DNA of 64,000 nt from a virus (IMGVR_UViG_3300035142_000030:1-64000), one strand, 5' to 3'. Positions 31,027 through 62,920 are shown, counted from the first letter of the stretch. Numbers and translations are program-made. The notes: a model not told the origin generated them from the letters alone.

Positions 31027-31155
31027 ATACAACGTTAAGCTTATGATACGTTGCGTTTAATAACATAACTTTTTGATAAAAATAAAAATTATATAAAATG
31101 AATATACTTAACAAATTAGCAAAATGTAAGCAATGGATTATACGCATTGTTAGCA
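31027..31155. repeat. attC-like site; its loop contains the start of the 31098 gene
   Basis: ATACAAC...TATGATACGTTGC / GCAATGGATTATA...GTTAGCA; homologous to the site at 51269-51398. Confidence 0.7.
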
Positions 31156-31478
31156 GTAGTTTATCTGGGAGGGTTTTTTATGATAATGGTAAAAAATATA
31201 TTATTCCTAAACACGTTTGGTTTAGCACAACTTTTAAAAAATATGGGAATGTACATAAAGCAAAGTTTGTTATCAACAAATACTCAAAGTCAGAACCAAA
31301 ACGAAGAATATGTAAATACATAGATGTTACAACTGGAACATATTTTTGTTTTGTAACCGCAAAAAGCAAAATAGAAGCACAAAAATTATTTTATAAGCAA
31401 TTGTGCGAATCAGGTGTTATTTTAAATGAAGAAGAAGAATGGAATCAATTTTTTTTCGGGCATGAACAAAGCGAATAA
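31098..31478 (+). CDS. Hypothetical cassette-type protein
   Basis: N-terminus KQWIIRIVSSS is encoded by the attC arm. Confidence 0.6.
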   Translation: MNILNKLAKCKQWIIRIVSSSLSGRVFYDNGKKYIIPKHVWFSTTFKKYGNVHKAKFVINKYSKSEPKRRICKYIDVTTGTYFCFVTAKSKIEAQKLFYKQLCESGVILNEEEEWNQFFFGHEQSE

Positions 31479-31489
31479 AATTTGACATT

Positions 31490-31762
31490 ATGGATATAGT
31501 AGAACATGCCATTAATAGAATTGAGTTTAATGAACACAAAATAAATGAATCTTTAAAAGAATTAAAAGAACTTAAAGATAATTTAATTGTAAAATATAAA
31601 CATCCTGAAATTGATATTAAGAGATTACTTCAAGATGAAAAATATAGATACATTATAGCACTTAAATTATCGAAAAATAATGTAGAAACTGCTAAATTAT
31701 TAGGAACTACTGAAAGAACATTTTATAGAAAAATGAATGAATTTAATTTACATAACCAATAA
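31490..31762 (+). CDS. Fis-type HTH protein
   Basis: C-terminal ALKLSKNNVETAKLLGTTERTFYRKM matches HTH_8. Confidence 0.75.
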   Translation: MDIVEHAINRIEFNEHKINESLKELKELKDNLIVKYKHPEIDIKRLLQDEKYRYIIALKLSKNNVETAKLLGTTERTFYRKMNEFNLHNQ

Positions 31763-31774
31763 AAATTAGAAATT

Positions 31775-31984
31775 ATGAGACAAGAAGTAAAATTTAGAGC
31801 ACCAATTAAAGTAATTGAAAGCGACAACTATTATTTGGTAATAGAGGATGCCGTTGGAGTTACGCATTATTTTCACAAAGAACATGATAATAAGTATGGA
31901 AAATTTAAACAAGGCGAATATGATGGATGGAGTAAACAAATTCGTAGTTTAAATGATAATACGAAAAAATGTTGTGGATTTTAA
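31775..31984 (+). CDS. Hypothetical protein
   Basis: 69 aa, AAATTATG start. Confidence 0.55.
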   Translation: MRQEVKFRAPIKVIESDNYYLVIEDAVGVTHYFHKEHDNKYGKFKQGEYDGWSKQIRSLNDNTKKCCGF

Positions 31985-32078
31985 TGTCCCGTTTAGAGGT
32001 ATATCCCGAAATAAAAAAAAAACTCGTAGAGTTTTGGGGGTACGGGATGGGTTGTGGGAATACCGAGCAAGCAATGGT

Positions 32079-32151
32079 TTATAACACAGCGGGATTTATG
32101 GGACGGTTTGGGGCTTTTGCCCCAAAATGGACTATGAAATCACAGTTAGGC
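32079..32151. repeat. attC-like site B
   Basis: TTATAAC...GATTTATGG / CTATGAAATC (extrahelical G)...GTTAGGC with an internal TTTGGGGC-TTTT-GCCCCAAA hairpin. Confidence 0.75.
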
Positions 32152-32166
32152 ATAAAATTTTTTGAT

Positions 32167-32367
32167 ATGGAATTTATAGTAGAATTAGAAGAAGGTGTTT
32201 ATTTGGCTACTTGGTCTGGCGACCCTGGGCGAACACTAAAGATTGAAAACGCACAAGTATTTGTCCGCGATAAAGATGCTGATAATGCTCTTGTTAGAGC
32301 CAGATATTATAGACCATTTAAGTATGCCAAAGTGCGAAGGCAAAAGGAAGGGTTGCGAAGCAGCTAA
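32167..32367 (+). CDS. Cassette gene, hypothetical (MEFIVELEEGVYLATWSGDPG...)
   Basis: Start re-called downstream of site B; lies in a body with 13-bp complementary ends. Confidence 0.65.
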   Translation: MEFIVELEEGVYLATWSGDPGRTLKIENAQVFVRDKDADNALVRARYYRPFKYAKVRRQKEGLRSS

Positions 32368-32386
32368 GGATGGGGGGGATTTTTAT

Positions 32387-32479
32387 GCCTAACGGTTTGG
32401 CTATGTTTAGTAGCCTAACCACTAACTTTGAAATATTTACTAAATTTGCATAGGCTATTAAATATAGCTTTTGTTATAA
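32387..32479. repeat. attC-like site C
   Basis: GCCTAAC...GCTATGTTTAGTAGCCTA / TAGGCTATTAAATATAGC...GTTATAA; 18-bp stem with two G-T pairs on the + strand. Confidence 0.8.
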
Positions 32480-32483
32480 ACTT

Positions 32484-32638
32484 TTAAGGGGGCTTCTTCG
32501 GAAGTATCAGCAGAAGGGGAACTTCGATAGCACAGTTGGTATGAGGCAACGACTTCAAACATCGTATATCGTAGGTTCGATTCCTACCGAATGACTTAAA
32601 ACGAGGCGTTACTGCACGCCTACCCTCTGCCCCCTTAA
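32484..32638 (+). ncRNA. Structured RNA with an embedded degenerate tRNA domain
   Basis: Terminal 10-bp stem TTAAGGGGGC/GCCCCCTTAA, C(UUCG)G hairpin, D-loop AGTTGGTA, anticodon arm ACGA..TCGT, T arm GTAGG-TTCGATT-CCTAC, extra AGGCGT/ACGCCT hairpin. Confidence 0.6.
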
Positions 32639-32745
32639 TTGTTTTATAACTATTAAATAAACACACCTGCATTAAAACTATTATATTTAATATAAATTTT
32701 AATATAAAAATCAAGAATTACCATAAAATTAGGGGAAATTTTTAT

Positions 32746-32753
32746 TATATTTG
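32746..32753 (+). promoter_or_regulatory. -7 promoter element TATATTTG
   Basis: TAnnTTTG four nt before the 32758 ATG (near-leaderless transcript possible). Confidence 0.45.
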
Positions 32754-32757
32754 TATT

Positions 32758-33111
32758 ATGAAAACACTAATATTATTTCTATTATTATTTCCTATCTATT
32801 CTTATTCGCAACAGGTAGGAGAAAAACTAACCCAAAAAGAATCATTAGCTCTTGTAGAAAAAGATCATTGTAACAAGTACTATTATACCTCAGAAGATAG
32901 TATCATTACTATTAGGACAAGAAAGTCAGATGATCTTATATGGGATATAGACTATCAAGTAAAGAGGACAAGTAAACTTTCATGGGTAACACAATACACT
33001 CAAATAGGAAGAAACGTATTCTATGATGAAGGAGATTATTATTTTGTATTTATTATAGGAGAATATTATTTAATACAGATTAGGAATGCGGAGAAAGTGT
33101 CGTCCTTATAA
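32758..33111 (+). CDS. Secreted hypothetical protein
   Basis: Bacteroidota-type signal peptide ending SYS-Q. Confidence 0.55.
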   Translation: MKTLILFLLLFPIYSYSQQVGEKLTQKESLALVEKDHCNKYYYTSEDSIITIRTRKSDDLIWDIDYQVKRTSKLSWVTQYTQIGRNVFYDEGDYYFVFIIGEYYLIQIRNAEKVSSL

Positions 33112-33775
33112 TTATGTTAATGTACATGAAATTATTAAAAGTGATAAGGTTTATGTGCCTAAGTTGAAATGGAAATTTGAATATGAAAGCTATTTTTTAA
33201 GTGGTGATAGGCAGCAAATATTGGATGCTATGTTTCAGCCCAAAAGTAAGGTTGTAAGAACAAATACAAGTTTTATCAGGAAGTTGGTTATAGAGATAGG
33301 GATTCAGGAGTTAAAGATTCGTAAGATAGTAGAAGGTAAAACAGCTAAAGGGTATCCTAAGATTATAGTATCTTGGCATAAACATCCTGGAAAGTATATG
33401 ATAGATGGGGAGGAGTTTAATAATTCTAGCGCTAGCAATAAGGACAACATTTATGATACTATAGACTGTTTGCATTTAGTACAAGATAAAGATAGAGCTT
33501 CTTTTGCAAAATATTGGTTTAGACCATTTACTAATTCATTTTCAAGGGAAACATTATTAAGAATCCCTAAGGGAAGGAAGTTTAAATGTATAGTTGCTCA
33601 TGTAGAAGAAGCTTTTAAGGAAAGAGACAAGCAGATGTATTACAAACAAGGGAACAGAATAGGGCAGCCAATAGTATTATTAAAGCCAGAGATAGTTAAG
33701 GTTTATCCATTAGAAACTCCCAATAAGGATATAAAAATAGATTATTTTAAATTATATAAACCTATAAAATTATAA
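33086..33775 (+). CDS. Hypothetical protein
   Basis: 229 aa basic ORF in the operon. Confidence 0.55.
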   Translation: MRRKCRPYNYVNVHEIIKSDKVYVPKLKWKFEYESYFLSGDRQQILDAMFQPKSKVVRTNTSFIRKLVIEIGIQELKIRKIVEGKTAKGYPKIIVSWHKHPGKYMIDGEEFNNSSASNKDNIYDTIDCLHLVQDKDRASFAKYWFRPFTNSFSRETLLRIPKGRKFKCIVAHVEEAFKERDKQMYYKQGNRIGQPIVLLKPEIVKVYPLETPNKDIKIDYFKLYKPIKL

Positions 33776-33778
33776 AAC

Positions 33779-34120
33779 ATGGAACAAATAATAGAGTATG
33801 AAGCTTTAGAAAGGAAAACAATATCTCGTGTTGTATGGTTAGACATGGATAGAGTGTTTTTTATTTTTAACGATGATTCTTTTTGTATTATTAAAGGAAG
33901 CGGGTGGGAAGAACCATATGCTGAAATAGATACAAATGAATATAATTTAGAACCTTACGAATGGAACTATAATGATTTATATAAATTAGGATTCATATCG
34001 AAAGAAGAATATAAGAAAATAGCTAATAATGCTAAGGATATGCACAGAAAGAGAATAGAAGAAGCAGATTTAGAAAAAATAAACATACTAAAACAAAAAT
34101 ACCCACAATATTTTAAATAA
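33779..34120 (+). CDS. Hypothetical protein
   Basis: 113 aa. Confidence 0.55.
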   Translation: MEQIIEYEALERKTISRVVWLDMDRVFFIFNDDSFCIIKGSGWEEPYAEIDTNEYNLEPYEWNYNDLYKLGFISKEEYKKIANNAKDMHRKRIEEADLEKINILKQKYPQYFK

Positions 34121-34121
34121 C

Positions 34122-43170: not shown

Positions 43171-43401
43171 TTAATATTGTTTTAATGGTTCTTTAGAGTC
43201 TGGCCTTCTCATAAAATTTAAATCGTTTATCAACTCTTTTGGTAAATGATCTAACATATGCATTTCAAAAACATTGTCCTCGATATGTTCAAACCAATAG
43301 GATAAAAATCTATATTTTATTATACCCTCATGCGATATTTTAGTTCCGTGATTGATTAATAAATTCACTACATCTTCAGATAATTTTATTGTATATTTCA
43401 T
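43171..43401 (-). CDS. Hypothetical protein
   Basis: 76 aa. Confidence 0.5.
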   Translation of the reverse strand: MKYTIKLSEDVVNLLINHGTKISHEGIIKYRFLSYWFEHIEDNVFEMHMLDHLPKELINDLNFMRRPDSKEPLKQY

Positions 43402-44336
43402 AACATATTTGAATTAAATTCTTCTGCTCTGCTTTCGAGCCTAAATATACGCATAAAGACACCTAACTCTTTGTATAAATATTCTTTTTTATTAGAGTCA
43501 TTATTTATTACATAATTAAATTCTGTGTCTTTCATGTTAAAGCGTCCTTTGTCCCTATCTACTCTTTCGTCTCCTACAGATTCTCTACGATCAAATTCTC
43601 CTCTGTGTATACGTACACTATATATATCATACACTTCTCCCCATTCTTTTTGTAACATCTCTAATCCATCTTCAGTAATAAGATAAGTATTTATATGACT
43701 CATATCATTAGTTAAAGAACAATAGCTATATTGCTCTTTACCTTTTTCCCCAAAAGTAGTTTCTGCTAATTTTTCTCCTAAAAGATCATTATATTCTTTT
43801 GTAGATAGAAATATATGATCGGTATCTTCTGGATTACGTTGTTTTCTGTTTGTGTAGCTATTAACTAGATTAATATTATAATGATTATATAGATATTTAG
43901 CGGCTAGAGATTTTCCAGCTCCACTCTCACCAATAATACATATAATACAAGGTTTCTCTATAAATTCAAATTGTTTTAATGATGTATTCCAGAGTTGATT
44001 GTTATAATTCTCTAAACCAATCATCTTTTTAAGGGTCACATCATTTAAGCTCTTATCATCTATATACACATCAGCGCTTATCTTTCTTGTGTCCGTACCA
44101 TAACGTTCTATCAATAATGAATCGTTCTCGTTAAAGTAATCGTACTTGATTCCTTCTGCTTCTAACCATATCTTAGCCTGTTCTGCATAATGTAAAGCAC
44201 GACAAGTGTTGATTACAATTGTATGTCCCCTATTATATAAATAGTTAATACAATATTTTGCATTAGGCAATATGTCCCCTATAAAAGGATATTCTTGTTT
44301 ACAAATAGTTCCGTCAAAATCACAAGATATTACCAT
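43398..44336 (-). CDS. HAD phosphatase fused to a guanylate-kinase-like P-loop domain
   Basis: DFDGTI...NTCR...KISADVYIDDK, then IIGESGAGKS and SYTNRKQR. Confidence 0.8.
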   Translation of the reverse strand: MVISCDFDGTICKQEYPFIGDILPNAKYCINYLYNRGHTIVINTCRALHYAEQAKIWLEAEGIKYDYFNENDSLLIERYGTDTRKISADVYIDDKSLNDVTLKKMIGLENYNNQLWNTSLKQFEFIEKPCIICIIGESGAGKSLAAKYLYNHYNINLVNSYTNRKQRNPEDTDHIFLSTKEYNDLLGEKLAETTFGEKGKEQYSYCSLTNDMSHINTYLITEDGLEMLQKEWGEVYDIYSVRIHRGEFDRRESVGDERVDRDKGRFNMKDTEFNYVINNDSNKKEYLYKELGVFMRIFRLESRAEEFNSNML

Positions 44337-45149: not shown

Positions 45150-45540
45150 TTTTTTCTTTTTTATATTTATAATTAAACCATGCTTCAAATTCTTTTTCTG
45201 AAAACTCTCCACTTAATTCTTTTACGTCTCTATAACATTCTTTTAGCTCTTCTTTTAAAAGTTTTTCAATATCTTCTTCTATTCGATAATACCTTAAAAG
45301 GTCTACTCTATAACCAGTGTTGGATTTCTCCTTGTATTTGTAGAGTATGTTATCAATTTTATCCTCTATCATTAAAATTTTAGATTCTACATCAACAACA
45401 TCAGATATATTTAAATCTTCTGCTTGTGTAGTCATAGGATAAAATTCCCATTTAACTTCAGGGTTAAATTCATTCATTTTGCTTAAGAAGTTATCTAAAG
45501 CAACTTTATTTTCTGGATTTAAGTTTTTTATATTTGCCAT
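45133..45540 (-). CDS. Hypothetical protein
   Basis: 135 aa. Confidence 0.55.
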   Translation of the reverse strand: MANIKNLNPENKVALDNFLSKMNEFNPEVKWEFYPMTTQAEDLNISDVVDVESKILMIEDKIDNILYKYKEKSNTGYRVDLLRYYRIEEDIEKLLKEELKECYRDVKELSGEFSEKEFEAWFNYKYKKEKNELFN

Positions 45541-45603
45541 AATAATAAATTTTTATTGGTTATTAATTCTAATATATATTTGTACTGCTCTCAGCGCAAC
45601 AAT

Positions 45604-45702
45604 TTATAACTACGTATAAATTCAAAAACCATGTGATAAGCTCATAAACTTTAAGATTACTCCGTAATCCAGTTTCTGAACTTATACGTTTGAACGTTAG
45701 GC
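45604..45702. repeat. attC-like site D (left edge of array 2)
   Basis: TTATAAC-T-ACGTATAAATTCAAAAAC / GTTTCTGAACTTATACGT-TTGAAC-GTTAGGC; A/C mismatches become G-T pairs on the minus strand. Confidence 0.8.
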
Positions 45703-46010
45703 TCAATCGCTTGCACTCCTTCCCTCATTTAAAATTGTATCAATTTGTTATTTTAAATGCTAAAATATCAACAGTTAATCGGATTTAATACGGTTAATTG
45801 CTTATATTTAAACAATTTTAAATTCCATCCTTACAACCCTCAAAATGCCAAATATTATTTTGCCTAACAATTTGGAAAATAAGCCTTCACACAAGTCCTT
45901 TAACGTCTCTTCTATCTGTTGCATTTTACCTAATATTACAATGCCTAACTAGTAAATAAAGTCCATAAAAATCAAAACTCTGTGTTTATAAAAAATAAAA
46001 CCACCGCACA

Positions 46011-46307
46011 CTACCAACTGTTATAGAATCTGATTTTATGCACACCTTTAGGTAAATCTTTAATAAATATCTCATATCCAGAAGAAGCATCGTCATCATA
46101 TTCTTTATAATGTTTTCCTGCTTCTAAGTTTATTTCTAATTTTTCATCCAATAAGTATTCTTCTGGATATTCACTGCCAAAATATTCAGCAGTAGCCTTT
46201 GGTAAATCTACATCAGCTTCTAAACAGGCTAATAATACTTTTTTGTGTTTTTGGTAAGTTTCATCCGTATCAGGTATGAATGCTTGTACATGTGTTGACA
46301 TTCCCAT
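46011..46307 (-). CDS. Hypothetical phage protein
   Basis: 98 aa, ends IRFYNSW. Confidence 0.6.
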   Translation of the reverse strand: MGMSTHVQAFIPDTDETYQKHKKVLLACLEADVDLPKATAEYFGSEYPEEYLLDEKLEINLEAGKHYKEYDDDASSGYEIFIKDLPKGVHKIRFYNSW

Positions 46308-46358
46308 CTCTTTTTATTTTTCCGTCAAACATATTTTTAATTTTTCATAACGTTCAAA

Positions 46359-46595
46359 TTAACAACACAAAAATTCAATCGCATCTTGTTCTTTTTTAAA
46401 GGGGCTTTCACATCCTTCAATTAAAAAAGATGATTTATATGGGTAAATAACACCAATAACAGATAAGCATCCTTTATTTGCTACAATTAATTTATTTCCA
46501 CATCTTTTAAATAAGAATTTAGGAAGTTTAATTTCTTCTTCTTCTTCTACATTATTATTTTTAATAAAATCTAATGACAAAATTTCTTCTTTCAT
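46359..46595 (-). CDS. Hypothetical protein
   Basis: 78 aa. Confidence 0.5.
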   Translation of the reverse strand: MKEEILSLDFIKNNNVEEEEEIKLPKFLFKRCGNKLIVANKGCLSVIGVIYPYKSSFLIEGCESPFKKEQDAIEFLCC

Positions 46596-46748
46596 AATAG
46601 TAAGTTTTAAAGTCTAATCAAATGTATGGTAAATATTTTTAATATGCAAATTATATCCCTAAAAAGATTAATATAATTACTACAGATTTAATAAAAAGAA
46701 ATCCTCCTATTATCCAAAGTAGTGCTACTGCTAGTAATTTTAACTTTT

Positions 46749-47051
46749 TCATAGTTTTCTATTTAAAAATGTAAATAATGCTGGTATATTCTCTCTAAAT
46801 ATAGAAGCATTTAACTCAGTACCCTCTATTTCTTCATATAAAGCTGTATAGTCGTCTTTCAATACTTTCATATATATTTGCCCCAAATTAAGACCATTAT
46901 ACTCCTGAGCGAGTATATCTGCCTTTAAAATGAATTGATTAAATTTAACTTGCTTGTCCATAATTCTATGTTTTATGAGTTGTTTTCTTTTTAGTTCTTT
47001 TAGATGTTTATGGTTTAACATCTCTAAGTGATCACATATAAAATCATTCAT
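46749..47051 (-). CDS. Hypothetical protein (start likely MNDFICD or MDKQVKF)
   Basis: The track start overlaps the HNH gene heavily. Confidence 0.4.
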   Translation of the reverse strand: MNDFICDHLEMLNHKHLKELKRKQLIKHRIMDKQVKFNQFILKADILAQEYNGLNLGQIYMKVLKDDYTALYEEIEGTELNASIFRENIPALFTFLNRKL

Positions 47052-47466
47052 TGTTTTTATTAATATCCGATAATTTTTCAAAATAAAAAACTCCATCAAA
47101 AGGTTTATTCTCAGTAATTCCAAAATATTCAGCAACTTTTAATAAATACTTTTTACGCTTAATAGACTTTTCAGTTTTTGGATTTTTAGGTAACTTTCTA
47201 AGTCTTTTATGTAAGCCGCCTAAATACCAAGTTCTGAAAGTTTCTAAATCTAGTGATCCTTTATAATGGTTTATTATTTTTTGAACGGGAAACATATTTT
47301 CAATATTATGCGCTCTTTCATTCATAGCCGTATTAGTCCACCAATTTCTAATTAGTGGTTCAACATGGTCTACTTGCCAATCATCTTCCAGATCAGTTCC
47401 TGAATAGGCACATTTACCATTGAATTTTGGTCTTATAATTTCTCTATTCTTTTTTGAAATGTACAT
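47044..47466 (-). CDS. HNH endonuclease family protein
   Basis: GKCAYSG...WQVDHVEP...NMFP...NHYK. Confidence 0.8.
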   Translation of the reverse strand: MYISKKNREIIRPKFNGKCAYSGTDLEDDWQVDHVEPLIRNWWTNTAMNERAHNIENMFPVQKIINHYKGSLDLETFRTWYLGGLHKRLRKLPKNPKTEKSIKRKKYLLKVAEYFGITENKPFDGVFYFEKLSDINKNNE

Positions 47467-47524
47467 ATATTACAAAGTTTTCGAATGCTATTAATAAGTT
47501 CTATTTGGTAAAGTCTAAGTAAAA

Positions 47525-47770
47525 TCATACAATCATTTTTTCAATAATAAAAAAAGTTTTTCCAAGTATTAAATAAGGAATTTTACCTGATTCAATTCTG
47601 TTTCTAACAGTTTTATCATTTACTTTATATTTTTTCACATATTCTGATATTTCAATTAATTCATATTGATTAAACATAAATACAATTAATTGTAAATATT
47701 CAGAATAATCGAGATGCTTATTTACAATTTTTTGTATATCAAATAGACAATACTTTCTTATATTGTTCAT
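47525..47770 (-). CDS. Small HTH/excisionase-like protein
   Basis: ISEYVKKYKVNDKTVRNRIESGKIP resembles HTH_17. Confidence 0.5.
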   Translation of the reverse strand: MNNIRKYCLFDIQKIVNKHLDYSEYLQLIVFMFNQYELIEISEYVKKYKVNDKTVRNRIESGKIPYLILGKTFFIIEKMIV

Positions 47771-47830
47771 AATATCAATTAGTTAAAATTTATGTTCCAC
47801 CTATCGATTAGTTAGCTGTAATAAAATTTA

Positions 47831-48100
47831 CTATCGTTCTACCCAAAAAGGATATTCCCCTGTATAAACTACTTTATTGCCAGCATTTGGCACGTATTCC
47901 CCTCGCTCGGTTTTCATCCAGTTCATTAGTGGTTCAAATGATGTTTTAGTTTCGTAACCGAAGCATCCATATTTAAACTTTATCTCCTTTTTGAAACCTT
48001 CATTTTCAGTTAAATCTCCAAATGGTGTAACATAAGGGAATACTACCATATCACCCTCGCACACTTCAATTCCGTTTTTATCAAATATATTACTTTTCAT
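47831..48100 (-). CDS. YopX-family cassette protein (start re-called to MKSNIFDKNG)
   Basis: DKNGIEVCEGD motif; the upstream part of the track ORF is attC sequence. Confidence 0.7.
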   Translation of the reverse strand: MKSNIFDKNGIEVCEGDMVVFPYVTPFGDLTENEGFKKEIKFKYGCFGYETKTSFEPLMNWMKTERGEYVPNAGNKVVYTGEYPFWVER

Positions 48101-48118
48101 GCCGTAAATTTTACATAC

Positions 48119-48218
48119 CGCTAACAAGCGGTCATAGTTAATAAAGCCAATTAAGTTTAGTTCGTTGTAGGTTGCGGTAGTGGGTGGCTTTACTAACCAT
48201 ACCGCATCTACGTTACAG
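48119..48218. repeat. attC-like site F
   Basis: CGCTAAC-AA-GCGGTCATAGTTAATAAAGCCA / TGGCTTTACTAACCATACCGC-ATCTAC-GTTACAG, with an extra C in the left arm. Confidence 0.82.
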
Positions 48219-48266
48219 ACAATTGCCCGCACGGCATTCCGCACGGGCTATCGCTCACAACCCACT

Positions 48267-48623
48267 CTAAATTTTGTTTAGAATTTGTTCCAACGCCCAA
48301 TACTCTGGATTTGCAAGAGCAGTAACTACATTATTAATATCACAAATACTAATAATCAGCCAAATACATAAAATGATTGCAAGTATAACAATTGCAATCC
48401 AATGTCCAACTTCAGTATCATTATCATAGCATTTTTGATAATTTTTAGCAAACCATTTTATGTATCGCACATATGGTATAATTAAGAGAAAAGAAATAAT
48501 GATTAAGGTAATTCCCACAAATGCATCAATAGGTGCTTGCTTAATCATAACTCCCCACAAGTATTCGGTCGTTGTACCAAGCTTACTTGCTAAGCTTTCT
48601 AATAATGTTGTTAATTCATTCAT
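48267..48623 (-). CDS. Two-TM cassette protein
   Basis: LASKLGTTTEYLW...NPEYWAL; body ends GTTACAGACAATTG / CAATTGTCTGTAAC. Confidence 0.7.
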   Translation of the reverse strand: MNELTTLLESLASKLGTTTEYLWGVMIKQAPIDAFVGITLIIISFLLIIPYVRYIKWFAKNYQKCYDNDTEVGHWIAIVILAIILCIWLIISICDINNVVTALANPEYWALEQILNKI

Positions 48624-48666
48624 TTTAATATAATTTAGTTAAACAAAATTTTCTAATGTCAATTGT

Positions 48667-48814
48667 CTGTAACAGTCGCCTAAATACAGCATTCGTCGCA
48701 GCTTCGTATCAAATTGGTTCATATCGTATTGAAACCCTAAGGCAACTATCTGTAACTACTAAATACAAGCCAGCGAGACAAGCTCGCCATCGTGTATTTA
48801 GGCGACTGTTAGAT
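48667..48814. repeat. attC-like site G with perfect 19-bp arms
   Basis: TAACAGTCGCCTAAATACA / TGTATTTAGGCGACTGTTA. Confidence 0.8.
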
Positions 48815-49001
48815 TCCATACTCCCACGGCATTCCCACAAACCCCGCTACGCCCCACCGCACAAAAACCATCGTATGAAATCTAATGGTACGGCAAGTAG
48901 TACCACTCGCTCAATACCATTTACGTATCTGAATCTTATTACTTCCTCCAACGTACAGAATCTAACTGTCAAGTCAGAGGAAAGTAATTTTAGAACTCAT
49001 T

Positions 49002-49226
49002 CTAAACAATACGTTTACAGCTTAATTCCCAATGTACTTGTTCGGCAACTTTTAATCTACGAACTGAACTTTTTCCAGTTTCAGGTAATTTGCCTTCATT
49101 TAACCATAATAATATCATTTGTATAAAGTTGCCTGCTGGCAATTCTACTTTTTGACCTTTACCATCTATATAATAAACTGTATCAGTCAATTCGCTGTAA
49201 ACTAATTCTTTTTTTTGCTCAATCAT
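49002..49226 (-). CDS. Hypothetical protein enclosed by an 18-bp inverted repeat
   Basis: 74 aa; arms at 48884-48901 and 49276-49293. Confidence 0.6.
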   Translation of the reverse strand: MIEQKKELVYSELTDTVYYIDGKGQKVELPAGNFIQMILLWLNEGKLPETGKSSVRRLKVAEQVHWELSCKRIV

Positions 49227-49396
49227 TTCTATATAATTTTATCTGTTAATAAACAATGTTCTAAAATTCCCATCCACTACTTGCCGTACCATTGTAACTC
49301 AATTGACAGCTCTCCATCCGCACAAGGCTTCCCATCCGCCCCGCAAAATACCAAAGCAATTGAGTTACAACGCTCGGAGTTCATTCGATGTAAAAA

Positions 49397-49651
49397 TTAT
49401 GAAACACCGAGTTTATGAGCTTCTTCATCAAATGCAATTTTTATATTTGTAATTTCAGTTTGAATTTCTAATAAAAGTTCATGAAATTCTTGTTGCTTAT
49501 CTTCAATTTGTTTGTCAGCAAATTGCATTTTTGAAATTATGTTCTCCTTATAAGCATAAGCAGAGTTCAAATCATTTTTTAATTTTGTGTGCTTAGCTTT
49601 AAGAACATCAAGTCTATTTAAGTAATTACCATACTGTTCTTGAAAATTCAT
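49397..49651 (-). CDS. Coiled-coil cassette protein
   Basis: 84 aa. Confidence 0.6.
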   Translation of the reverse strand: MNFQEQYGNYLNRLDVLKAKHTKLKNDLNSAYAYKENIISKMQFADKQIEDKQQEFHELLLEIQTEITNIKIAFDEEAHKLGVS

Positions 49652-49700
49652 AATTTTTACCTTTCTATATTTAAGTTTATAATGTTCGATACGTCACAGC

Positions 49701-49810
49701 GTACAACTACGTGTAATGCAGAATTGCTACAATCGAATGATGCCGATTTACGGCTTTACTTTGCCTTGCGGCAAATCGCCGCAACTCAGCATACACTCCG
49801 AGCGTTATGC
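49701..49810. repeat. attC-like site
   Basis: GTACAAC-TAC-GTGTAATGCAGAATTGC / GCAACTCAGCATACAC-TCCGAGC-GTTATGC. Confidence 0.75.
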
Positions 49811-49842
49811 GTAAAAATACCCGCATCCTAGTTCGCTAACGC

Positions 49843-49938
49843 TCACCCATCCGCATCCTCCCACTTATCAATATACAATTTTAGCTTATAAATAAGTATT
49901 CCTATTACAATTCCGATTCCTATTAATATTAAATTCAT
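49843..49938 (-). CDS. 31-aa single-TM micropeptide cassette gene
   Basis: MNLILIGIGIVIGILIYKLKLYIDKWEDADG; fills a body with 16-bp complementary ends. Confidence 0.55.
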   Translation of the reverse strand: MNLILIGIGIVIGILIYKLKLYIDKWEDADG

Positions 49939-50095
49939 ATCCAAATATTTTTACGCATAACACCAGAGAAAATATACCGTCCCGCAGGAGACGTTCTCCA
50001 GTATCTGCAAGTTTATATTCCTAATATTTCTACTCATAACTAAAAAATCATAGCACATTAAAATCAAAACTCTGTGTTTAATAAAATAAAGCCAA

Positions 50096-50446
50096 TTAAT
50101 ATATATTCTTTCTACCCCTGTCAGCGTGCAATGGTACTAAATGATCACACGAACCGCAAAAATGTTTAGCTTTAGTCTCCCAGTAAATTCCTTCAGAATG
50201 TGTATCAAAAAGCGAATTACAATTGCTACACATCTCAATATGGTCTGGTAGTAAAGGAAAATGTTCTTGTAAATAATAAATTATTGCAAACGCTTTTTTA
50301 GCTGTCATCTTTGGCTGATGCCCACGCTTAAAAGAAAGTTGTTCAGGTAATTCACCTTGTAAAAAATTGTAAAATTCTTCTATCCATTCAAGGTCTGTAT
50401 CAATCCTCTGATCATTATTTTTAAGCAATTTTATTTCATTGTACAT
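50096..50446 (-). CDS. Zn-binding hypothetical protein
   Basis: CSNC...CGSC; enclosed by an 18-bp inverted repeat. Confidence 0.6.
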   Translation of the reverse strand: MYNEIKLLKNNDQRIDTDLEWIEEFYNFLQGELPEQLSFKRGHQPKMTAKKAFAIIYYLQEHFPLLPDHIEMCSNCNSLFDTHSEGIYWETKAKHFCGSCDHLVPLHADRGRKNIY

Positions 50447-50586
50447 AAGGCTTTATTTTTAATTAGTACTAAATTTATAATCATATTTTACCTGTAATTT
50501 CATCAAGTTTCAATCAATGTTTTAATTTTACCGTCCCATATTTTCTCTGGTGTTAGAAAACATGCCGTTTCGAACGGACGCAAAAA

Positions 50587-50868
50587 TCATTTTGCTTTCT
50601 TATATTTAGAGCCTTTACTATTACAAAAATCACATATTGCATTGTTAGGTTTGTTAGATATACATGAACTGCAAAATTTCCATTTTTGCTCATGTTTTCT
50701 AACGGTTTCACGTTCGTTTGATATTAAAATTTGATTGATAAAGTCATTCAATTGGACTATAGCGTATTCAACAGACAACATATCTAATGTGTCTTCATCT
50801 CCAATTGTATCAAGTCTATCCATTAATATCTTACGTATTCCATCAGTATAATCTTTTTTATGTTTCAT
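50587..50868 (-). CDS. Cassette protein with Cys-rich C-terminus
   Basis: CSSC...CDFC. Confidence 0.6.
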   Translation of the reverse strand: MKHKKDYTDGIRKILMDRLDTIGDEDTLDMLSVEYAIVQLNDFINQILISNERETVRKHEQKWKFCSSCISNKPNNAICDFCNSKGSKYKKAK

Positions 50869-50926
50869 AATATCAAATTTTAATTATTAATACTAATTTA
50901 GTTTATCAATTCTCAACGTCACGATT

Positions 50927-51036
50927 TTCTAACCAACGTTTATGCTTAATTAAAGCTATCAAACGATGCTCCGTTAAAGCTTTTCTTGCGTTTCACGCAA
51001 CCGCTTTAACAAAGCATACACGTGAAACCGTTAGAG
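50927..51036. repeat. attC-like site
   Basis: TTCTAAC-CA-ACGTTTATGCTTAATTAAAGC / GCTTTAACAAAGCATACACGT-GAAACC-GTTAGAG. Confidence 0.8.
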
Positions 51037-51041
51037 TGCAT

Positions 51042-51329
51042 TTAATCCAAGTGAATAAGCATTTCTCCCCACGCACTTCTACCTTTCACTTTCGGTAGTG
51101 ATGTGTAGTGTAGTGTCATTCCTGTAAATTCACACTCTTTGTTATTTAAACTTTTTTTAACCATCCAGTCTTTTGCTTCTTTCCTTATAATATCATCTTC
51201 ATTGTTTCGATGCCAGCCCACGCTAATTATCAAATTACCAATTCTAATTTTACTAAGTGAAAAACGCACTCTAACAATAGATAAAATCCATTGCTTAAAA
51301 TGTGCTAATTCGTTACGTAAGTATTTCAT
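51042..51329 (-). CDS. Cassette protein starting inside an attC loop (MKYLRNELAHFKQWILSIVRVR)
   Basis: N-terminus homologous to that of the 31098 protein. Confidence 0.6.
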   Translation of the reverse strand: MKYLRNELAHFKQWILSIVRVRFSLSKIRIGNLIISVGWHRNNEDDIIRKEAKDWMVKKSLNNKECEFTGMTLHYTSLPKVKGRSAWGEMLIHLD

Positions 51330-51398
51330 ATCAATGTTTTTATAAGTTTGAAAATTCAGTTCATTAAATCGCAACGTATCTTATCAGAGCCGTTGCAC
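51269..51398. repeat. attC-like site homologous to 31027-31155
   Basis: CTCTAAC-AATA-GATAAAATCCATTGC / GCAACGTATCTTATC-AGAGCC-GTTGCAC. Confidence 0.8.
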
Positions 51399-51485
51399 AC
51401 AATGCCCCATCTAGGGGACGTGCGACTCGCTATCGCTCCTGTCGCACTCATTGTGTGCAACAGTTTGGCGTTAGCTTGTAAATAA

Positions 51486-51662
51486 TTATTCGCTCAGTAC
51501 TTCTAAACTATAAGATGATACATAATCAATCTTTTTACCAACTATTACAACTGCATACGGTATATCATCAGCTCCCCGCACGTATCCATCAATGTATCCA
51601 ACATCTCCAACCTTAAACATCATATGTTGGTATTCTTTAATAATTTTAACTTTTGTCTTCAT
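51486..51662 (-). CDS. 58-aa hypothetical cassette protein (MKTKVKIIKEY...)
   Basis: Translated by hand; below the track cutoff. Confidence 0.6.
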   Translation of the reverse strand: MKTKVKIIKEYQHMMFKVGDVGYIDGYVRGADDIPYAVVIVGKKIDYVSSYSLEVLSE

Positions 51663-51697
51663 AATTATTTATTTAGTTATTTGTTAATTTCTGCTTA

Positions 51698-51868
51698 CTA
51701 GATGGTGCACAATGTGCAACTAGCGTTTATGCGTAATTGTAATAGGCAATTTCCAATCTCCCAGTAACTTGCGCCTAAACGTTCCAATATCATTTCAGCT
51801 TTCTCAAAGCTCCAACTTTTATAACATTGATAAAAGTTCCCTTTATAGGTATACATTATATGAATCAT
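51698..51868 (-). CDS. Hypothetical protein (start MIHIMYTYKG)
   Basis: AAATTATG context; C-terminus reads through an attC-like arm. Confidence 0.45.
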   Translation of the reverse strand: MIHIMYTYKGNFYQCYKSWSFEKAEMILERLGASYWEIGNCLLQLRINASCTLCTI

Positions 51869-51985
51869 AATTTTATATTTAAAGTTTGTACTAAATTTTA
51901 ACAATACCCTAAAAATCCTTCCCATATCTTTCGGAGTGTTATGGCTCAATTTCGCTACGCTCTACGATGACTTCATTTAATTGAG

Positions 51986-52171
51986 CCATAACGAGACAAC
52001 GTATGAAGTACAGGCTCAGTGTACTATATTAATTCTATTTTAATTTATCCGCTCAACTAGAGCATAACTACATATAAGCGTAATACTATGAGCCTTACTT
52101 CAAAGCTCTCAGAATATTTCACCGATAAAAATCGGCTCATATTCCTACGCTTATACGTTGTCTCGTTAGTA
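51986..52171. repeat. attC-like site with perfect 16-bp outer arms (right edge of array 2)
   Basis: TAACGAGACAACGTAT / ATACGTTGTCTCGTTA, plus inner TGAAGTA..AGGCTCA / TGAGCCTTACTTCA pairing. Confidence 0.75.
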
Positions 52172-52253
52172 GCAAGCGGGTTCAGTTCTCGTATCAAACA
52201 TTGTGCGTATTTGAAAGAAAAAGAAAAGCCCCGCCCGCTTTTGGCAAAGCCAA

Positions 52254-52868
52254 TTAGGATAAAGCTGCAAGTAGTTCAGTTACCCACTTATTTGAATCTT
52301 CACATCTTTTCAATTCTGCATTGTGTTCTTTTGTGTGGTATTCAATATCCCAGTTGGCATCTGCAATCATATCCTTTCTAATATCAGCAGCATTTATGTT
52401 TTCTAATTGAGAATCTATCTTGCTTAACTCATCATCGTGGTACTTTGTGTCTCCATCGTGGTCAATAGTTGTCACTATCTGTTCAATCATAAATTTAGCA
52501 ATTCCTTCGTGGTCTTTTGTTGGTGGTTTGAAATCCCTTGCTTTAATTAAAAACTCATCAAGTTTAACCCTTGCTTTTTTTATTTCCTTAATTCTTTCGG
52601 TGTGATAGGTTCTACTTTCTTTTATCTGTTTTTTGCGAGAGGCAATTATTTCAGAATCGGTAAGTTTCTCAGCTTGATTTAATTTTTCATTAGCTGTTTT
52701 TAACGCTTTAATATGGTAATCGCTCGGCGTTCTTGGCACGTACTCTTTATTCATACTTTCATCTCTCATATGTATAGTTGCTCCAAAAGCTCTCATACAT
52801 TGTTTTGCAAAATCTTGGAATGTTTCGGTTGTGCCGTCAATAATTCCTGCTGTGTAACCTGTTGGCAT
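52254..52868 (-). CDS. Conserved-looking phage protein (MPTGYTA...)
   Basis: 204 aa, helical. Confidence 0.65.
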   Translation of the reverse strand: MPTGYTAGIIDGTTETFQDFAKQCMRAFGATIHMRDESMNKEYVPRTPSDYHIKALKTANEKLNQAEKLTDSEIIASRKKQIKESRTYHTERIKEIKKARVKLDEFLIKARDFKPPTKDHEGIAKFMIEQIVTTIDHDGDTKYHDDELSKIDSQLENINAADIRKDMIADANWDIEYHTKEHNAELKRCEDSNKWVTELLAALS

Positions 52869-58579: not shown

Positions 58580-58605
58580 TTTAATAGTTAATTTTAGTTG
58601 ATTTA

Positions 58606-58636
58606 AAGGCCTGTATTTAATCGTACAGGCTTTTTT
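58606..58636 (+). terminator. Rho-independent terminator
   Basis: AAGGCCTGTA...TACAGGCTTTTTT. Confidence 0.7.
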
Positions 58637-58891: not shown

Positions 58892-58925
58892 ATAGCCTGG
58901 TTTAAATTAGATCAGGTTATTTTTT
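58892..58925 (+). terminator. Rho-independent terminator-like hairpin
   Basis: ATAGCCTGGTTTAA-A-TTAGATCAGGTTAT plus T run. Confidence 0.55.
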
Positions 58926-59771: not shown

Positions 59772-60368
59772 TTATAGCACATCAGGCTTGAACTCAAAGA
59801 TATATGCTTTATGCCTAGTTTCATCTTTTAAATATCGATTAATTGTTTTGCGATCTACACCGAAATGTTTAGCCGCATCGACAACAGAATCAAACTGTAA
59901 TTGTTCCCTGGTTTGTATGTGTGTGGTTAATATAGGTTTTTTCTTTGCATTTGACATTTTTATGCGTGTTTCAAGGTTGTGCGGAGGTTTTATTTTGCCT
60001 TTCCAATAACTATTCCTTTGTCCTGTCTGAAAGGATTTTAATATGTTTTCGCTATGAGTTACCCACTCTAAGTTAGATATATGATTATTTAACTTATCGT
60101 GGTCAATATGGTTAACCTCTTTCTTATATTTATTGTCGCTATATCCCTTGAAAGTGATTAATACGAGCCTATGAGCGAAGAATATCTTTGTGCGTGGTTT
60201 ATCTCTGTTCTCTTCTGTCTTCTCTTGCGTAAGATGGTATAATATATAGCCACAACTATTTAGTTGAGGTTTTAAGAATCTTTGCTTTCTGATAGAATAC
60301 ACATCACCGTTTTCATATATATAATATAAGTTTTCAAATCCTGGTAACATTATTGTTTTTCTTTTCAT
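59772..60368 (-). CDS. Free-standing HNH homing endonuclease (NUMOD4-HNH-NUMOD3/NUMOD1 type)
   Basis: PGFENLYYI.ENG, AHRLV, EVNHIDHDKLNNHISNLEWVTHSEN, ETRIKMS, FDSVVDAAKHFG. Confidence 0.88.
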   Translation of the reverse strand: MKRKTIMLPGFENLYYIYENGDVYSIRKQRFLKPQLNSCGYILYHLTQEKTEENRDKPRTKIFFAHRLVLITFKGYSDNKYKKEVNHIDHDKLNNHISNLEWVTHSENILKSFQTGQRNSYWKGKIKPPHNLETRIKMSNAKKKPILTTHIQTREQLQFDSVVDAAKHFGVDRKTINRYLKDETRHKAYIFEFKPDVL

Positions 60369-60744
60369 AATGAATTATTTAATTAATATTGATGTGTGAC
60401 AAATGTACAAAATATAATTAATATATACAAATTGCTTTTTCTTTGGCTCAAACATTTAGGAAGGAAATAATACTAGGAGTATGTTTATTTACTTAATACA
60501 GACGATCTGATGCACTTTTATAGTATGAGCGGATACTTTTTCATTTTCAATAAGTTAATGTCTTTAAAGGGGTTAATTTTAAAGGGGGTAGGTTCGCAAA
60601 TTTCGTTTTAGGTTAGCAAGTGACACCCCTCATTTTATATCTTTAAGCCCATATAGAGAATAGTACAAACATTTTAAATCCTTAAAATATACACTATTAG
60701 CTATAATAATCAGTAATAAATTATGATATTAACTATTTTATCCT

Positions 60745-60752
60745 TATATTTG
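60745..60752 (+). promoter_or_regulatory. -7 promoter element upstream of cassette array 3
   Basis: TATATTTG about 80 nt before the first attC-like arm. Confidence 0.5.
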
Positions 60753-60929
60753 TATAAAATAAAATATAATATGTGAATGTACTAAGTTTATTTGATGAGA
60801 TATCATCAAAGCTACTTCATCTTAATGGAGTCTAATGGTTGAGTATATGAGTAGTGTCCCAAACGTACAGTGGGACGCACATAAATTTTAAAAAATGTAC
60901 AAACGAGAATATAAACTATAAAAACACGA

Positions 60930-61346
60930 GTGATGAAAAATTTAAAACAGGCATTAATTGAAAATATCGCTGACATTTTAGATAGTGAAGATGTACGGTG
61001 TGAAGAGGTGTTAAACGGAATTTCCGACCCGATAAAAAGAGAAAAAAGCGAGTTGCATATAAGGATGGCAGAAGCTGCACTTGCTGAATACAAAAGAACG
61101 TGCGAGGACAGGGCAATGGAATTAGATATTGAAATATTTGACAAAAACAGAAAGGTATTACATATAGGTAGTATTATAAGCCGTTATTTATTTAAACTTG
61201 CAGAAAAGCACGATAAAGATGTTGAAGATTTACTACTAGGTATAGAACTAAGCCAACCAATTAGAGATGATGGAAAGAACATCATAGAATTAGTGGACTT
61301 AGACCTTAATAGAATTGACAAGGTTTTATGTTCTAATGGCTTATAA
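60930..61346 (+). CDS. Cassette-type protein spanning an attC-like arm (KVLHIGSIISRY)
   Basis: Stop TAA lies inside the TTATAAC core of the next site. Confidence 0.55.
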   Translation: MMKNLKQALIENIADILDSEDVRCEEVLNGISDPIKREKSELHIRMAEAALAEYKRTCEDRAMELDIEIFDKNRKVLHIGSIISRYLFKLAEKHDKDVEDLLLGIELSQPIRDDGKNIIELVDLDLNRIDKVLCSNGL

Positions 61347-61623
61347 CGTTGAATGTATGGGTAGGGCGTGAAATACCTGCAGCCCTACACGCGATAGATA
61401 AACATTAAATAACATAAATAGCGAACGATTATGAAACACGTAATAGAATTACTTACAGAACAATTAGAATTGATTAGTGACGAAATAAGATATGCAGAAG
61501 GTGAAGAACTGAAACAGTTAGACTGCAGAAACACAGAAATAGGGACTGCTCTTAAAATACTGCAGTTAGTGAGCGGTGTAAATACGGAGAACGAACAAGC
61601 CTTACCTATACATATTGTTAGGG
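61341..61623. repeat. Large attC-like site whose loop holds the start and about 55 codons of the 61431 gene
   Basis: TTATAAC-GTTGA-ATGTATGGGTAGGGCGTG / CAAGCCTTACCTATACAT-ATT-GTTAGGG (17 of 18 paired, two G-T on +). Confidence 0.8.
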
Positions 61624-61826
61624 TTTGTGCTTGGGAGGATGCTGCAGACGAGGATAAAGTACCATTTTTAGAAAAAGCTGCAGAACTTGCAGGTGATTCA
61701 ATGTTTTGTACGCGCGTTTGGAGTGCGTGGGGAGTTGGAACTATGAGCGAGAACGACTTTGTTGATGCTGCAGATGATGATGATTACGTATACGAAATAG
61801 CAAAAGCGATTTGGGAGGGGTATTAA
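61431..61826 (+). CDS. Two-part cassette protein (junction ALPIHIVRVC)
   Basis: 131 aa; C-terminal half lies in the body GTTAGGGTT...AACCCTAAC. Confidence 0.65.
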   Translation: MKHVIELLTEQLELISDEIRYAEGEELKQLDCRNTEIGTALKILQLVSGVNTENEQALPIHIVRVCAWEDAADEDKVPFLEKAAELAGDSMFCTRVWSAWGVGTMSENDFVDAADDDDYVYEIAKAIWEGY

Positions 61827-61924
61827 CCCTAACGCCTTAAAGCGTAAACTCCGTTACATGGAGAACGTAGTTCGGGAATGTAACGAGTTTAAAATGCTGT
61901 AATGGAGTTTACGCATAGTTACAA
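61827..61924. repeat. attC-like site
   Basis: CCCTAAC-GCCTTAAA-GCGTAAACTCCGTTACA / TGTAATGGAGTTTACGC-ATA-GTTACAA. Confidence 0.82.
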
Positions 61925-61976
61925 ACCGTGCCAATGGCACAAAGATTATTAGAATGTTGAACTTAAAATAAATTTT

Positions 61977-62126
61977 ATGAAACGTTTATGTAAAATGAAA
62001 CCATATTATGTAATACCAAGAGTATTTTATATATATGCTGGCTATACTGGATTAGATAATGGATTAGCAATAGGTTGGCTTGGCAGAATGTTTATTATAA
62101 TTATTCCTGTTAATGAAAGGGAATAA
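61977..62126 (+). CDS. 49-aa hydrophobic cassette protein
   Basis: Translated by hand (MKRLCKMKPYYVIPRVFYIY...). Confidence 0.45.
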   Translation: MKRLCKMKPYYVIPRVFYIYAGYTGLDNGLAIGWLGRMFIIIIPVNERE

Positions 62127-62465
62127 AATTTATGCATTTTAGCTTTAAGGCGTTACAAAACCATAGGCAAACAGTGGAAACGGTGAGCGAAGCGAATAAG
62201 TTTCGTTTGCCGTGCCTCGATGGCATGGTTTTGTAACGTACGTGTATACGCCTGTTGGTATGATTATTAATAGTATAAACTTAAATTAATAAATAATAAA
62301 ATTACGTAAATTCGCAAAAATAATAAAGACAACGAAAACAGATTTGCAGAAATGATAATACCCAGAAAAGATATTGATATAATAATTAAGAGACAAAGAT
62401 CAATATTATAACAAAGTGTTAATCAAAAATTGAATGAATAATAAACGTATTAAATATATAATATT

Positions 62466-62633
62466 ATGATAGAGCGATTTGAAGCTTTAATAGGACAATA
62501 TGAAGCTGAACTAAAGAAATTACTTAATGAATTTCGAAAAGCTGAACCATCTCCACATAAATCTGAATTAGAGATTATGATTAGGGAAAAAAAAAGAGTA
62601 ATTTCTGATTTAAAGTGGGTTTTAGTTTATTAG
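62466..62633 (+). CDS. 55-aa hypothetical protein
   Basis: Translated by hand (MIERFEALIGQYEAEL...). Confidence 0.5.
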   Translation: MIERFEALIGQYEAELKKLLNEFRKAEPSPHKSELEIMIREKKRVISDLKWVLVY

Positions 62634-62681
62634 AATAACAAACTTTAAAAAATTATTAAAAATTTATAAAAAATATGAGCG

Positions 62682-62855
62682 ATGGTAACAAGCGACAATT
62701 ATTACGAAAAGAAAATTAAAAACAGTATTGGGAAAAGATTCACACAAAAAGAAGCAATTGAATTTGAAAGAGAAATGATTAATTCCCCAACTGGCACTAA
62801 CAATTATACATGGTTTGATAGTAAAACAAAACAGCCAATTGCGTTTAATTATTGA
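62682..62855 (+). CDS. 57-aa hypothetical protein
   Basis: Translated by hand (MVTSDNYYEKK...); stops 2 nt before an attC-like core. Confidence 0.5.
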   Translation: MVTSDNYYEKKIKNSIGKRFTQKEAIEFEREMINSPTGTNNYTWFDSKTKQPIAFNY

Positions 62856-62856
62856 G

Positions 62857-62920
62857 CGGTAACGGTGGCAATAAGATTAAGCGTAGCGACCCGTAGGGTT
62901 AATTTTATTGCGTGTTATAC
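62857..62920. repeat. attC-like site upstream of the methyltransferase
   Basis: CGGTAAC-GGTG-GCAATAAGATTAA / TTAATTTTATTGC-GT-GTTATAC. Confidence 0.8.

Follow-up and report, generated by a model that had tools for sequence, protein, structure and literature searches.

A probable array of integron-type gene cassettes, without a recombinase gene, in a phage genome

The stretch examined here, IMGVR_UViG_3300035142_000030:1-64000 (the window, 64,000 nucleotides), covers the first 64 kb of a virus record that is complete at 76,721 bp and has direct terminal repeats; the GC content of the window is about 31%. Terminase, portal and virion genes occupy 0.3-30.9 kb on the plus strand, small genes lie on the minus strand at about 41-60 kb, and genes resume on the opposite strand (+) from 60.8 kb. 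The portal protein shows about 23% identity to its counterparts in Cellulophaga, Maribacter and Flavobacterium podoviruses, and TAnnTTTG promoter-like motifs are common; on these two grounds, the host is probably a member of the Bacteroidota. At 45.6-52.2 kb, we found at least 16 modules with GTT/AAC cores, in a genome of 76.7 kb that has no integron integrase match. This array is the subject of the present analysis, together with the similar units found near 32 and 62 kb.

Eleven successive modules run without a gap from 48212 to 51275 and interlock according to a simple rule: the sequence to the right of one core pairs, over 10-19 nucleotides, with the sequence to the left of the next core. 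GTT..AAC modules thereby alternate with AAC..GTT modules, each core being common to both neighbours. The first, S1 (48212-48673, GTT..AAC), has arms GTTACAGACAATTG and CAATTGTCTGTAAC around a minus-strand gene (48267-48623) whose product is a 118-residue membrane protein (phrog_1486). S2 (48670-48811, AAC..GTT) is a geneless perfect stem of 19 bp with a 104-nucleotide loop, and S3 (48808-48886, GTT..AAT), also geneless, is 79 nucleotides long with two mismatches in its arms. In S4 (48884-49293), perfect arms of 18 bp surround gene 49002-49226 (-) and carry a compensated AAT..ATT variant of the core; in the geneless S5 (49292-49370, TT..AA), perfect 14-bp arms enclose a loop of 51 nucleotides. 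S6 (49369-49806, AAC..GTT) has 12-bp perfect arms around gene 49397-49651 (-), S7 (49804-49961, GTT..AAC, 158 nucleotides) has 16-bp perfect arms and a tiny open reading frame (ORF) of 31 residues (49843-49938, -), and S8 (49958-50555, AAC..GTT) has 18-bp perfect arms around gene 50096-50446 (-), which codes for 116 residues. ORF 50587-50868 (-) spans a junction, at 50701, so that its C-terminal CxxC..CxxC tail is coded by S9a (50552-50703, GTT..AAC, 13-bp arms) and its head by S9b (50698-51035, AAC..GTT, 16-bp perfect arms). The chain ends with S11 (51030-51275, GTT..AAC), whose arms GTTAGAGTGC and GCACTCTAAC overlap gene 51042-51329 (-).

Three further modules lie at 51392-52168: two short GTT..AAC hairpins with perfect arms of 13 bp (51392-51461) and 14 bp (51938-51992), and a geneless AAC..GTT hairpin (51989-52168) with a perfect stem of 16 bp and an inner imperfect hairpin of 28 nucleotides. 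Altogether, seven of the GTT..AAC modules, 55-158 nucleotides long, are short hairpins devoid of a normal gene. Farther to the left, at 45605-45701, lies an imperfect attC-like hairpin (R'' TTATAAC, spacer TAC, L'' GTATAA, L' TTATAC, spacer GTTTGAAC, R' GTTAGGC) with the same box layout as sites of Polaribacter phages (L005/L006), and the pair TTTGAACGTTA/TAACGTTCAAA (45689-46358) encloses gene 46011-46307 (-).

The two outlying clusters are thin. Cluster 1 is limited to a unit with ends GTTAGGCATAAAA/TTTTATGCCTAAC (32145-32393) around ORF 32167-32367 (+), nested within a weaker pair, 32077/32481. Cluster 3 comprises an AAC..GTT module with 14-bp arms (61830-62155), a short GTT..AAC hairpin, also with 14-bp arms (62151-62238), and a weak pair of 9 nucleotides, GTTAGGGTT/AACCCTAAC (61616-61833), whose left arm lies within ORF 61431-61826 (+) and which falls below the threshold of our screen for pairs in clusters 1 and 3. 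Where the original prediction had announced three arrays, therefore, a strong one exists only at 45.5-52.4 kb, the other two holding one to three units each. The six end-complementary pairs that it had quoted are all present, with the last beginning at 61616 instead of 61617; for the pair at 50552, GTTAGAAAA does have the partner TTTTCTAAC at 50925-50933, but also a longer one, CATGTTTTCTAAC, at 50691-50703. Its description of the structures as imperfect hairpins does not hold for many of them, which consist of perfect arms 50-560 nucleotides apart.

The abundance of such arms was compared with that in dinucleotide shuffles, counting perfect inverted repeats with a loop of at most 800 nucleotides in region 45501-52400. 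There are 18 repeats of at least 12 nucleotides (shuffled mean 0.9, maximum 3), 10 of at least 14 nucleotides (0.09 in shuffles), 6 of at least 16 nucleotides (0.01) and 8 that start with GTTA/TAAC (0.13). A chance origin of the inverted repeats, which it had been proposed to check in shuffled sequence, is thus ruled out. For the virion region (1-30000), the corresponding four counts are 1, 0, 0 and 0; the 30-kb virion module is free of such an array. The tetranucleotides GTTA and TAAC are not enriched per se; what is non-random is their position at the ends of arms. The sequence common to all junctions amounts to only 3-4 nucleotides (GTT/AAC), and the rest of every arm is specific to its module.

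Integron cassettes are bounded by GTT.. and ..AAC ends that are complementary to each other, and are exchanged at G|TT; the attC site itself is an imperfect hairpin of about 55-150 nucleotides (R''-L''..L'-R') in which a central spacer stays unpaired and some bases are extrahelical. In the array, the ends of GTT..AAC modules are complementary over 10-16 nucleotides, as those of cassettes are, while the RRRY/RYYY consensus is obeyed by some ends only (for example GTTAGAT and GTTAGGC). The architecture of an attC could be recognized at four sites, namely 45605-45701, about 49706-49811 (in S6), 50927-51036 (in S9b) and 61830-61921 in cluster 3 (R'' CCCTAAC, L'' GCGTAAACTCC, L' GGAGTTTACGC, R' GTTACAA); the dominant arms elsewhere are perfect, with loops of 50-560 nucleotides. 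Three modules (S6, S9b and that at 61830) have an ordinary-looking imperfect hairpin at one end, and the far arm, across the gene, is the perfect complement of the long spacer of that hairpin plus GTT.

The variant core of S4 gives an indication of where modules were joined. AAT at 48884 and ATT at 49291 replace AAC and GTT there, and the changed bases pair with each other within S4 but are mismatched with G48808 and C49371, their partners in the adjoining modules. This pattern of pairing assigns the G:C pair to the AAC..GTT domain and the TT:AA pairs to the GTT..AAC domain, which places the boundary at N|TT, as in integrons. The unbroken chain and the compensated core variant together make the exchange point readable from sequence. 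Exchange at G|TT also agrees with two observations made in other genomes and described below: a homology that stops at GTTA in contig L112, and breaks after GTT in Polaribacter phages.

We then asked where the genes of the array occur elsewhere. Gene 48267-48623 has 185 relatives, and 71 viral loci were inspected. At several of these loci, on contigs of 29-65% GC, the homolog is found in a GTT-x..x'-AAC unit. One unit (L007, ends 60-70/441-451) surrounds a homolog at 93-440, another (L033, 486/928) a homolog at 545-904, and contig L060 has four such units. The recombinase genes adjacent to the L007 unit (L080:1177-2127) and to those of L060 (L079:1447-2544) score 270.8 and 412.7 bits, respectively, on the integron integrase model TIGR02249, the cut-off of which is 265 bits. 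On L033, a low-GC viral contig, a canonical attC array is immediately followed by a gene for a 267-residue Xer-like recombinase (L033:1371-2171). Gene 50096-50446 likewise has homologs that are cassettes, lying between canonical imperfect attCs with ends GTTATGCGT..ACGCATAAC in L089 and L090 and GTTATCGCT..AGCGATAAC in L085; no IntI is found in these three records. The ends of the L089 cassette, GTTATGCGT/ACGCATAAC followed by G.TCG.A-GTGTATG, recur in the window as the arms of S7. Both gene families tested therefore occur elsewhere as GTT..AAC-bounded units.

One site of the array is itself modular. An exact search of metagenome contigs with one arm led to L112, a contig of 1,033 bp (GC 30%) from another metagenome, Ga0102926, which is 86% identical to 48660-48811. 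The match begins at the outer arm CAATTGTCTG (48660-48669) and stops at GTTA; the gene on its upstream side and the sequence on its downstream side both differ from those of the window. Two of three matches to the S2 arm in metagenome contigs were due to chance, and in IMG/VR, exact 18-mers of two arms matched nothing but unrelated coding sequence.

Phages of Bacteroidota offer further comparisons. Polaribacter phages P12002L and P12002S are 97-99% identical and differ by blocks, with homology that stops right after GTT (..CCGTTGTT|AGGCAC, |ACCCAC, |CTATGT; ..ACACGTT|AGCCAC versus ..ACGTT|GTGCAT). Their intergenic sites are hairpins of 55-70 nucleotides, xxxTAAC-ACC-GTATATAA..CATATAC-AAGTAC-GTTAxxx, and the P12002L sites have in common with four sites of the window the TAAC..GTTA core and the inner boxes GTATA/TATAC. 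In Cellulophaga phage phi18:3, gp035 is bracketed by ATTGTTAGGCAC/GTGCCTAACAAT, and homology with three sister phages starts at that TAAC. Methyltransferase genes are the cargo of site-bounded units in P12002L and lie near those of phi18:3; in the window, a C-5 cytosine DNA methyltransferase gene (62952-63932, +) directly follows cluster 3. GTTA/TAAC sites also cluster just upstream of a 428-residue tyrosine recombinase in Cellulophaga phages phi13:2 and phi18:3 (L004, 12.4-16.4 kb; L003, 14.7-16.7 kb), and this enzyme beside the small array of phi18:3 was discarded as a candidate since it is not IntI-like.

Between phi18:3 and phi13:2, most breaks fall at start codons, and mosaic joints of phages are often found at gene boundaries. 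This raises the question of whether ordinary homologous or microhomology recombination at short boundary motifs, with no site-specific enzyme, could have produced the array. A precedent is documented in the mobile promoter-terminator stem-loops (PeSLs) of T4-type phages, which have a conserved sequence, act via homology and mediate modular shuffling (PMC2839356, PMC4122927). Like PeSLs, the modules are boundary elements of accessory genes in a hyperplastic region of a phage, where such elements are thought to drive modular shuffling; unlike PeSLs, they have only GTT/AAC in common, their unit ends are self-complementary, and no conserved promoter plus stem-loop is associated with them. The 3-4 conserved nucleotides are too short for homologous exchange, no promoter-terminator motif is common to the junctions, and recombination of this kind does not predict complementary ends. 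We regard it as very unlikely.

Another possibility is a role of the stems in RNA: a long-range helix would close every gene or spacer of a polycistronic transcript (to allow RNase III-type processing, to insulate translation or to protect ends), with GTT/AAC as a leftover or as a recognition motif. The units look co-transcribed, and minus-strand TAnnTTTG motifs number only three in 45.4-52.4 kb, with none at 48.2-52.2 kb. A strong RNA structure is predicted for 48600-49420 (z = -6.6), and a tight inner AT-rich inverted repeat accompanies every gene (48269/48651, 48986/49268, 49390/49660, 50083/50459). Furthermore, for four site regions the coding strand gives the better fold, by 2-5 kcal/mol, and a local hairpin at 48226-48250 forms on that strand only, via G-U pairs. 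Better folding of the coding strand follows from composition alone, however, as this strand is G-rich, and the arms are perfect Watson-Crick helices lacking the G-U pairs that selected RNA helices would be expected to show. A role in RNA would also leave unexplained the fixed GTT/AAC core, the N|TT boundary, the gene families found beside IntI and the reuse of 48660-48811 in another contig; we consider it unlikely. As for the G-rich character, tracts of 40-50 nucleotides rich in G on the coding strand (48226-48262, 48822-48870, 49306-49345, 49820-49862 and 32020-32060) carry recurring motifs resembling GCGGATGGG/GGGATGGG, just before many x-AAC arms.

Clusters of attC sites without an integrase (CALINs) have already been reported in phages, virulent ones included, among them one Flavobacteriia phage, Polaribacter P12002L (Qi, Rajabal, Ghaly, Tetu, Gillings 2023, Front Microbiol 14:1091391, PMC9892861). 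These authors found 2-4 predicted attC sites per phage, in the form of short imperfect hairpins detected by IntegronFinder or HattCI; two Polaribacter phage sites were cloned for an attC x attI1 assay with IntI1, and one recombined (PMC9892861). The array in the window resembles such clusters in being an integrase-less phage array of small cassettes with GTT/AAC cores. It differs in that at least 16 modules form an interlocking chain, and in that most arms are perfect, 12-19 nucleotides long, up to 560 nucleotides apart and missed by a model of Polaribacter-type sites. Recombinase-less attC arrays in phages being published, the value of this further member lies in a clean chain, an N|TT marker and a non-canonical stem design.

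With classical integrons, sedentary chromosomal ones included, the array shares complementary GTT..AAC ends, the G|TT exchange point, small co-oriented ORFs lacking promoters, and gene families that are also cassettes beside genes above the TIGR02249 cut-off. Unlike in classical integrons, no intI, attI or Pc was identified, genes lie in AAC..GTT loops, ORFs read across junctions, and stems have neither spacer nor extrahelical bases. In addition, complementarity reaches 9-12 nucleotides past the core on its outer side, and a cut at the core would therefore fall in the middle of a stem. The array of L033 is alike in its TAAC..GTTA core, its low-GC phage context and a homologous cassette gene; the Xer-like recombinase gene is found only there, and a literature search returned no paper on this variant of such arrays. 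IS200/IS605 and REP/RAYT elements differ from the modules in that no match to a Y1 HUH transposase (PF01797) exists in the genome, and in that hairpin arms are unique to each module here, not conserved across copies.

We conclude that a recombinase-less array of integron-type gene cassettes probably occupies 45.6-52.2 kb and extends to the one to three units present at each of 32.1 and 61.8 kb. In this model, circular units, each with a folded site and a GTT/AAC core, would be recombined as single-stranded DNA hairpins and inserted serially by a tyrosine recombinase cutting at G|TT. A circle with the stem (x-AAC-y)/(y'-GTT-x') would be cut at G|TT and joined to a resident G|TT. After insertion, x' would stand at the start of the unit and x-AAC-y..y'-G at its end, before the next unit; the outer half of the stem of the site would remain at the 5' end of the unit and the remainder at its 3' end. 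Since each serial insertion would split a stem between unit ends in this way, repetition would yield a chain such as the one observed, where halves of two different stems meet at every junction, one pairing leftward and the other rightward. Because the cassettes are small, co-oriented and mostly promoterless, they would be transcribed from an upstream promoter. The enzyme would be supplied in trans, either as an integron integrase of the host or as a small Xer-like recombinase of the kind found beside arrays in other low-GC contigs, and might still be acting; alternatively, the array would be a fossil. The perfection of the stems could be ascribed, as a conjecture, to correction of near-palindromes by template switching in phage replication.

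The accessory regions of phages are usually ascribed to illegitimate or homology-driven mosaicism. The array would indicate that site-specific cassette capture in the manner of integrons also shapes phage genomes, and the presence of the same gene families in a phage array and in bacterial integrons would link the two gene pools.

Several results weigh against this conclusion. First, the 76.7-kb genome has no match to Phage_integrase, TIGR02249, Resolvase or Y1_Tnp (for PF00589, nothing at E 1), and no remnant of a gene of the L033 type, tblastn with that recombinase yielding nothing even at E 10. Accordingly, there is neither a complete integron (intI with adjacent attI and promoter) nor, where the array ends, a gene for a small Xer-like recombinase. 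Second, no close relative that could show the gain or loss of units was found: a blastn search of INPHARED with the array gave no match, phage relatives sought in IMG/VR via a 312-residue gene (43398-44336) and the portal gave none, and the flanking gene 52254-52868 used as a query matched one contig, which is unrelated and ends too early. Third, most stems are perfect and continuous, with no unpaired spacer or extrahelical bases, and five AAC..GTT modules (S4, S6, S8, S9b and 61830/62155) hold a gene in a loop of 300-560 nucleotides, which standard cassette insertion does not yield. Fourth, the ends of L089 type frame the neighbouring S7 of 158 nucleotides and not gene 50096-50446 itself. Fifth, the only relative of ORF 50587-50868 has a different head and a common tail that includes the residues coded by the junction, so that the break is not at G|TT. 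Finally, a covariance model, R1, built from six Polaribacter and Cellulophaga sites recovers a canonical attC in L089 (E 0.011) and, even with filters off, detects nothing in the window, where its best E-value of 0.36 falls at an unrelated place.

Other screens were no more informative. Rfam gave no match to the sites, a loose box pattern (AAC..GTAT..ATAC..GTT) was no commoner than in shuffles, and screening for TAAC..GTTA hairpins by folding energy lacked selectivity. Comparison of 32 canonical attCs with the genome by blastn-short gave nothing meaningful, and high-GC and low-GC attCs could not be aligned together by MAFFT. Two segments, 60833-60860 and 49780-49819 (minus strand), resemble the 5' half of an attC (L089:3247-3342), which is suggestive and in itself not significant.

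As to the agent, the original prediction had the variable gene content of the phage built from cassettes shuffled by an IntI-type recombinase. The cassette-like nature of the units is upheld by the chain, the N|TT boundary and the modular genes and site; an IntI-type agent within this genome is not, as no recombinase is encoded. Nor do sequencing runs give evidence of ongoing shuffling: the stretch was found in the probable source run alone, which is stored as contigs and has no variant joints, and no RNA run holding the stretch is listed.

A peculiarity of S8 is a flush 8-bp direct repeat, ACCGTCCC, at 49976-49983 and 50530-50537, just inside the arms, as would result from insertion into an 8-nucleotide loop with target duplication. 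The modules could accordingly be non-autonomous transposable elements, or genes inserted into the loops of hairpins, perfect hairpins serving as landing pads. Genes are indeed found in both GTT..AAC and AAC..GTT modules, and the L112 site retains its arms while the adjoining gene differs. Only one of 16 modules has a flush direct repeat, however, no transposase of any family searched was found, and, the arms being different from module to module, no transposase could recognize common ends; moreover, transposition alone does not yield a domino chain with shared cores. This explanation appears quite unlikely.

Owing to these misfits (the missing recombinase, the perfect stems, the genes in loops, the S8 repeat, the ends of S7, ORF 50587-50868 and the silence of R1), we do not file the sites as canonical attC, and some weight is left to helices in RNA and to insertion into loops. 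A variant of the cassette model is possible, if doubtful: the chain could be the product of a phage-specific cousin of integrons, not of IntI, with long, perfect composite stems cut mid-stem at N|TT, a gene in either loop, in-frame sites that swap the tails of proteins, and a small Xer-like recombinase that would come from the host or from a co-infecting phage. Were this true, it would be a general route for the trade of accessory genes among Bacteroidota phages. Perfect sites cut mid-stem with genes in their loops depart from the attC rules of IntI1, and they make a concrete set of substrates for enzyme tests.

Some additional features were noted in and around the accessory regions. Two HNH endonuclease-like ORFs lie in or near them, at 47044-47466 (-; phrog_2118, 1e-22) and 59772-60368 (-; phrog_59, 2e-37). 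To the right of the array, gene 52254-52868 (-; 204 residues, phrog_8905) is 66% identical to L002:10001-10612, in an otherwise unrelated IMG/VR contig. The homology begins near a TAAC about 24 nucleotides upstream of the start codon, and the contig also has GC-rich intergenic elements containing TAAC. After the unit of cluster 1, a structured element of 155 nucleotides (32484-32638, +; fold z = -3.9) is closed by GGGGGC/GCCCCC and has a tRNA-like core. Rfam tRNA matches it at 32528-32587 with 25.2 bits (E 0.0042), below the gathering score of 29, and ARAGORN calls no tRNA; the element has D, anticodon and T arms, with an anticodon loop that could read UCA, and lacks a normal acceptor stem. 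At its left end, the array has a non-coding stretch of 470 nucleotides (45541-46010), and a plus-strand promoter of Bacteroidota type, TATATTTG at 45575, is directed into this stretch, antisense to the cassette genes; the stretch may specify a non-coding or antisense RNA. Lastly, a direct repeat of about 30 nucleotides, AAAATCAAAACTCTGTGTTTA..AAAATAAA, occurs at 45967-46000 and 50060-50093, in both cases immediately 3' of a cassette gene (46011-46307 and 50096-50446, respectively), and may be a shared terminator or 3' element.

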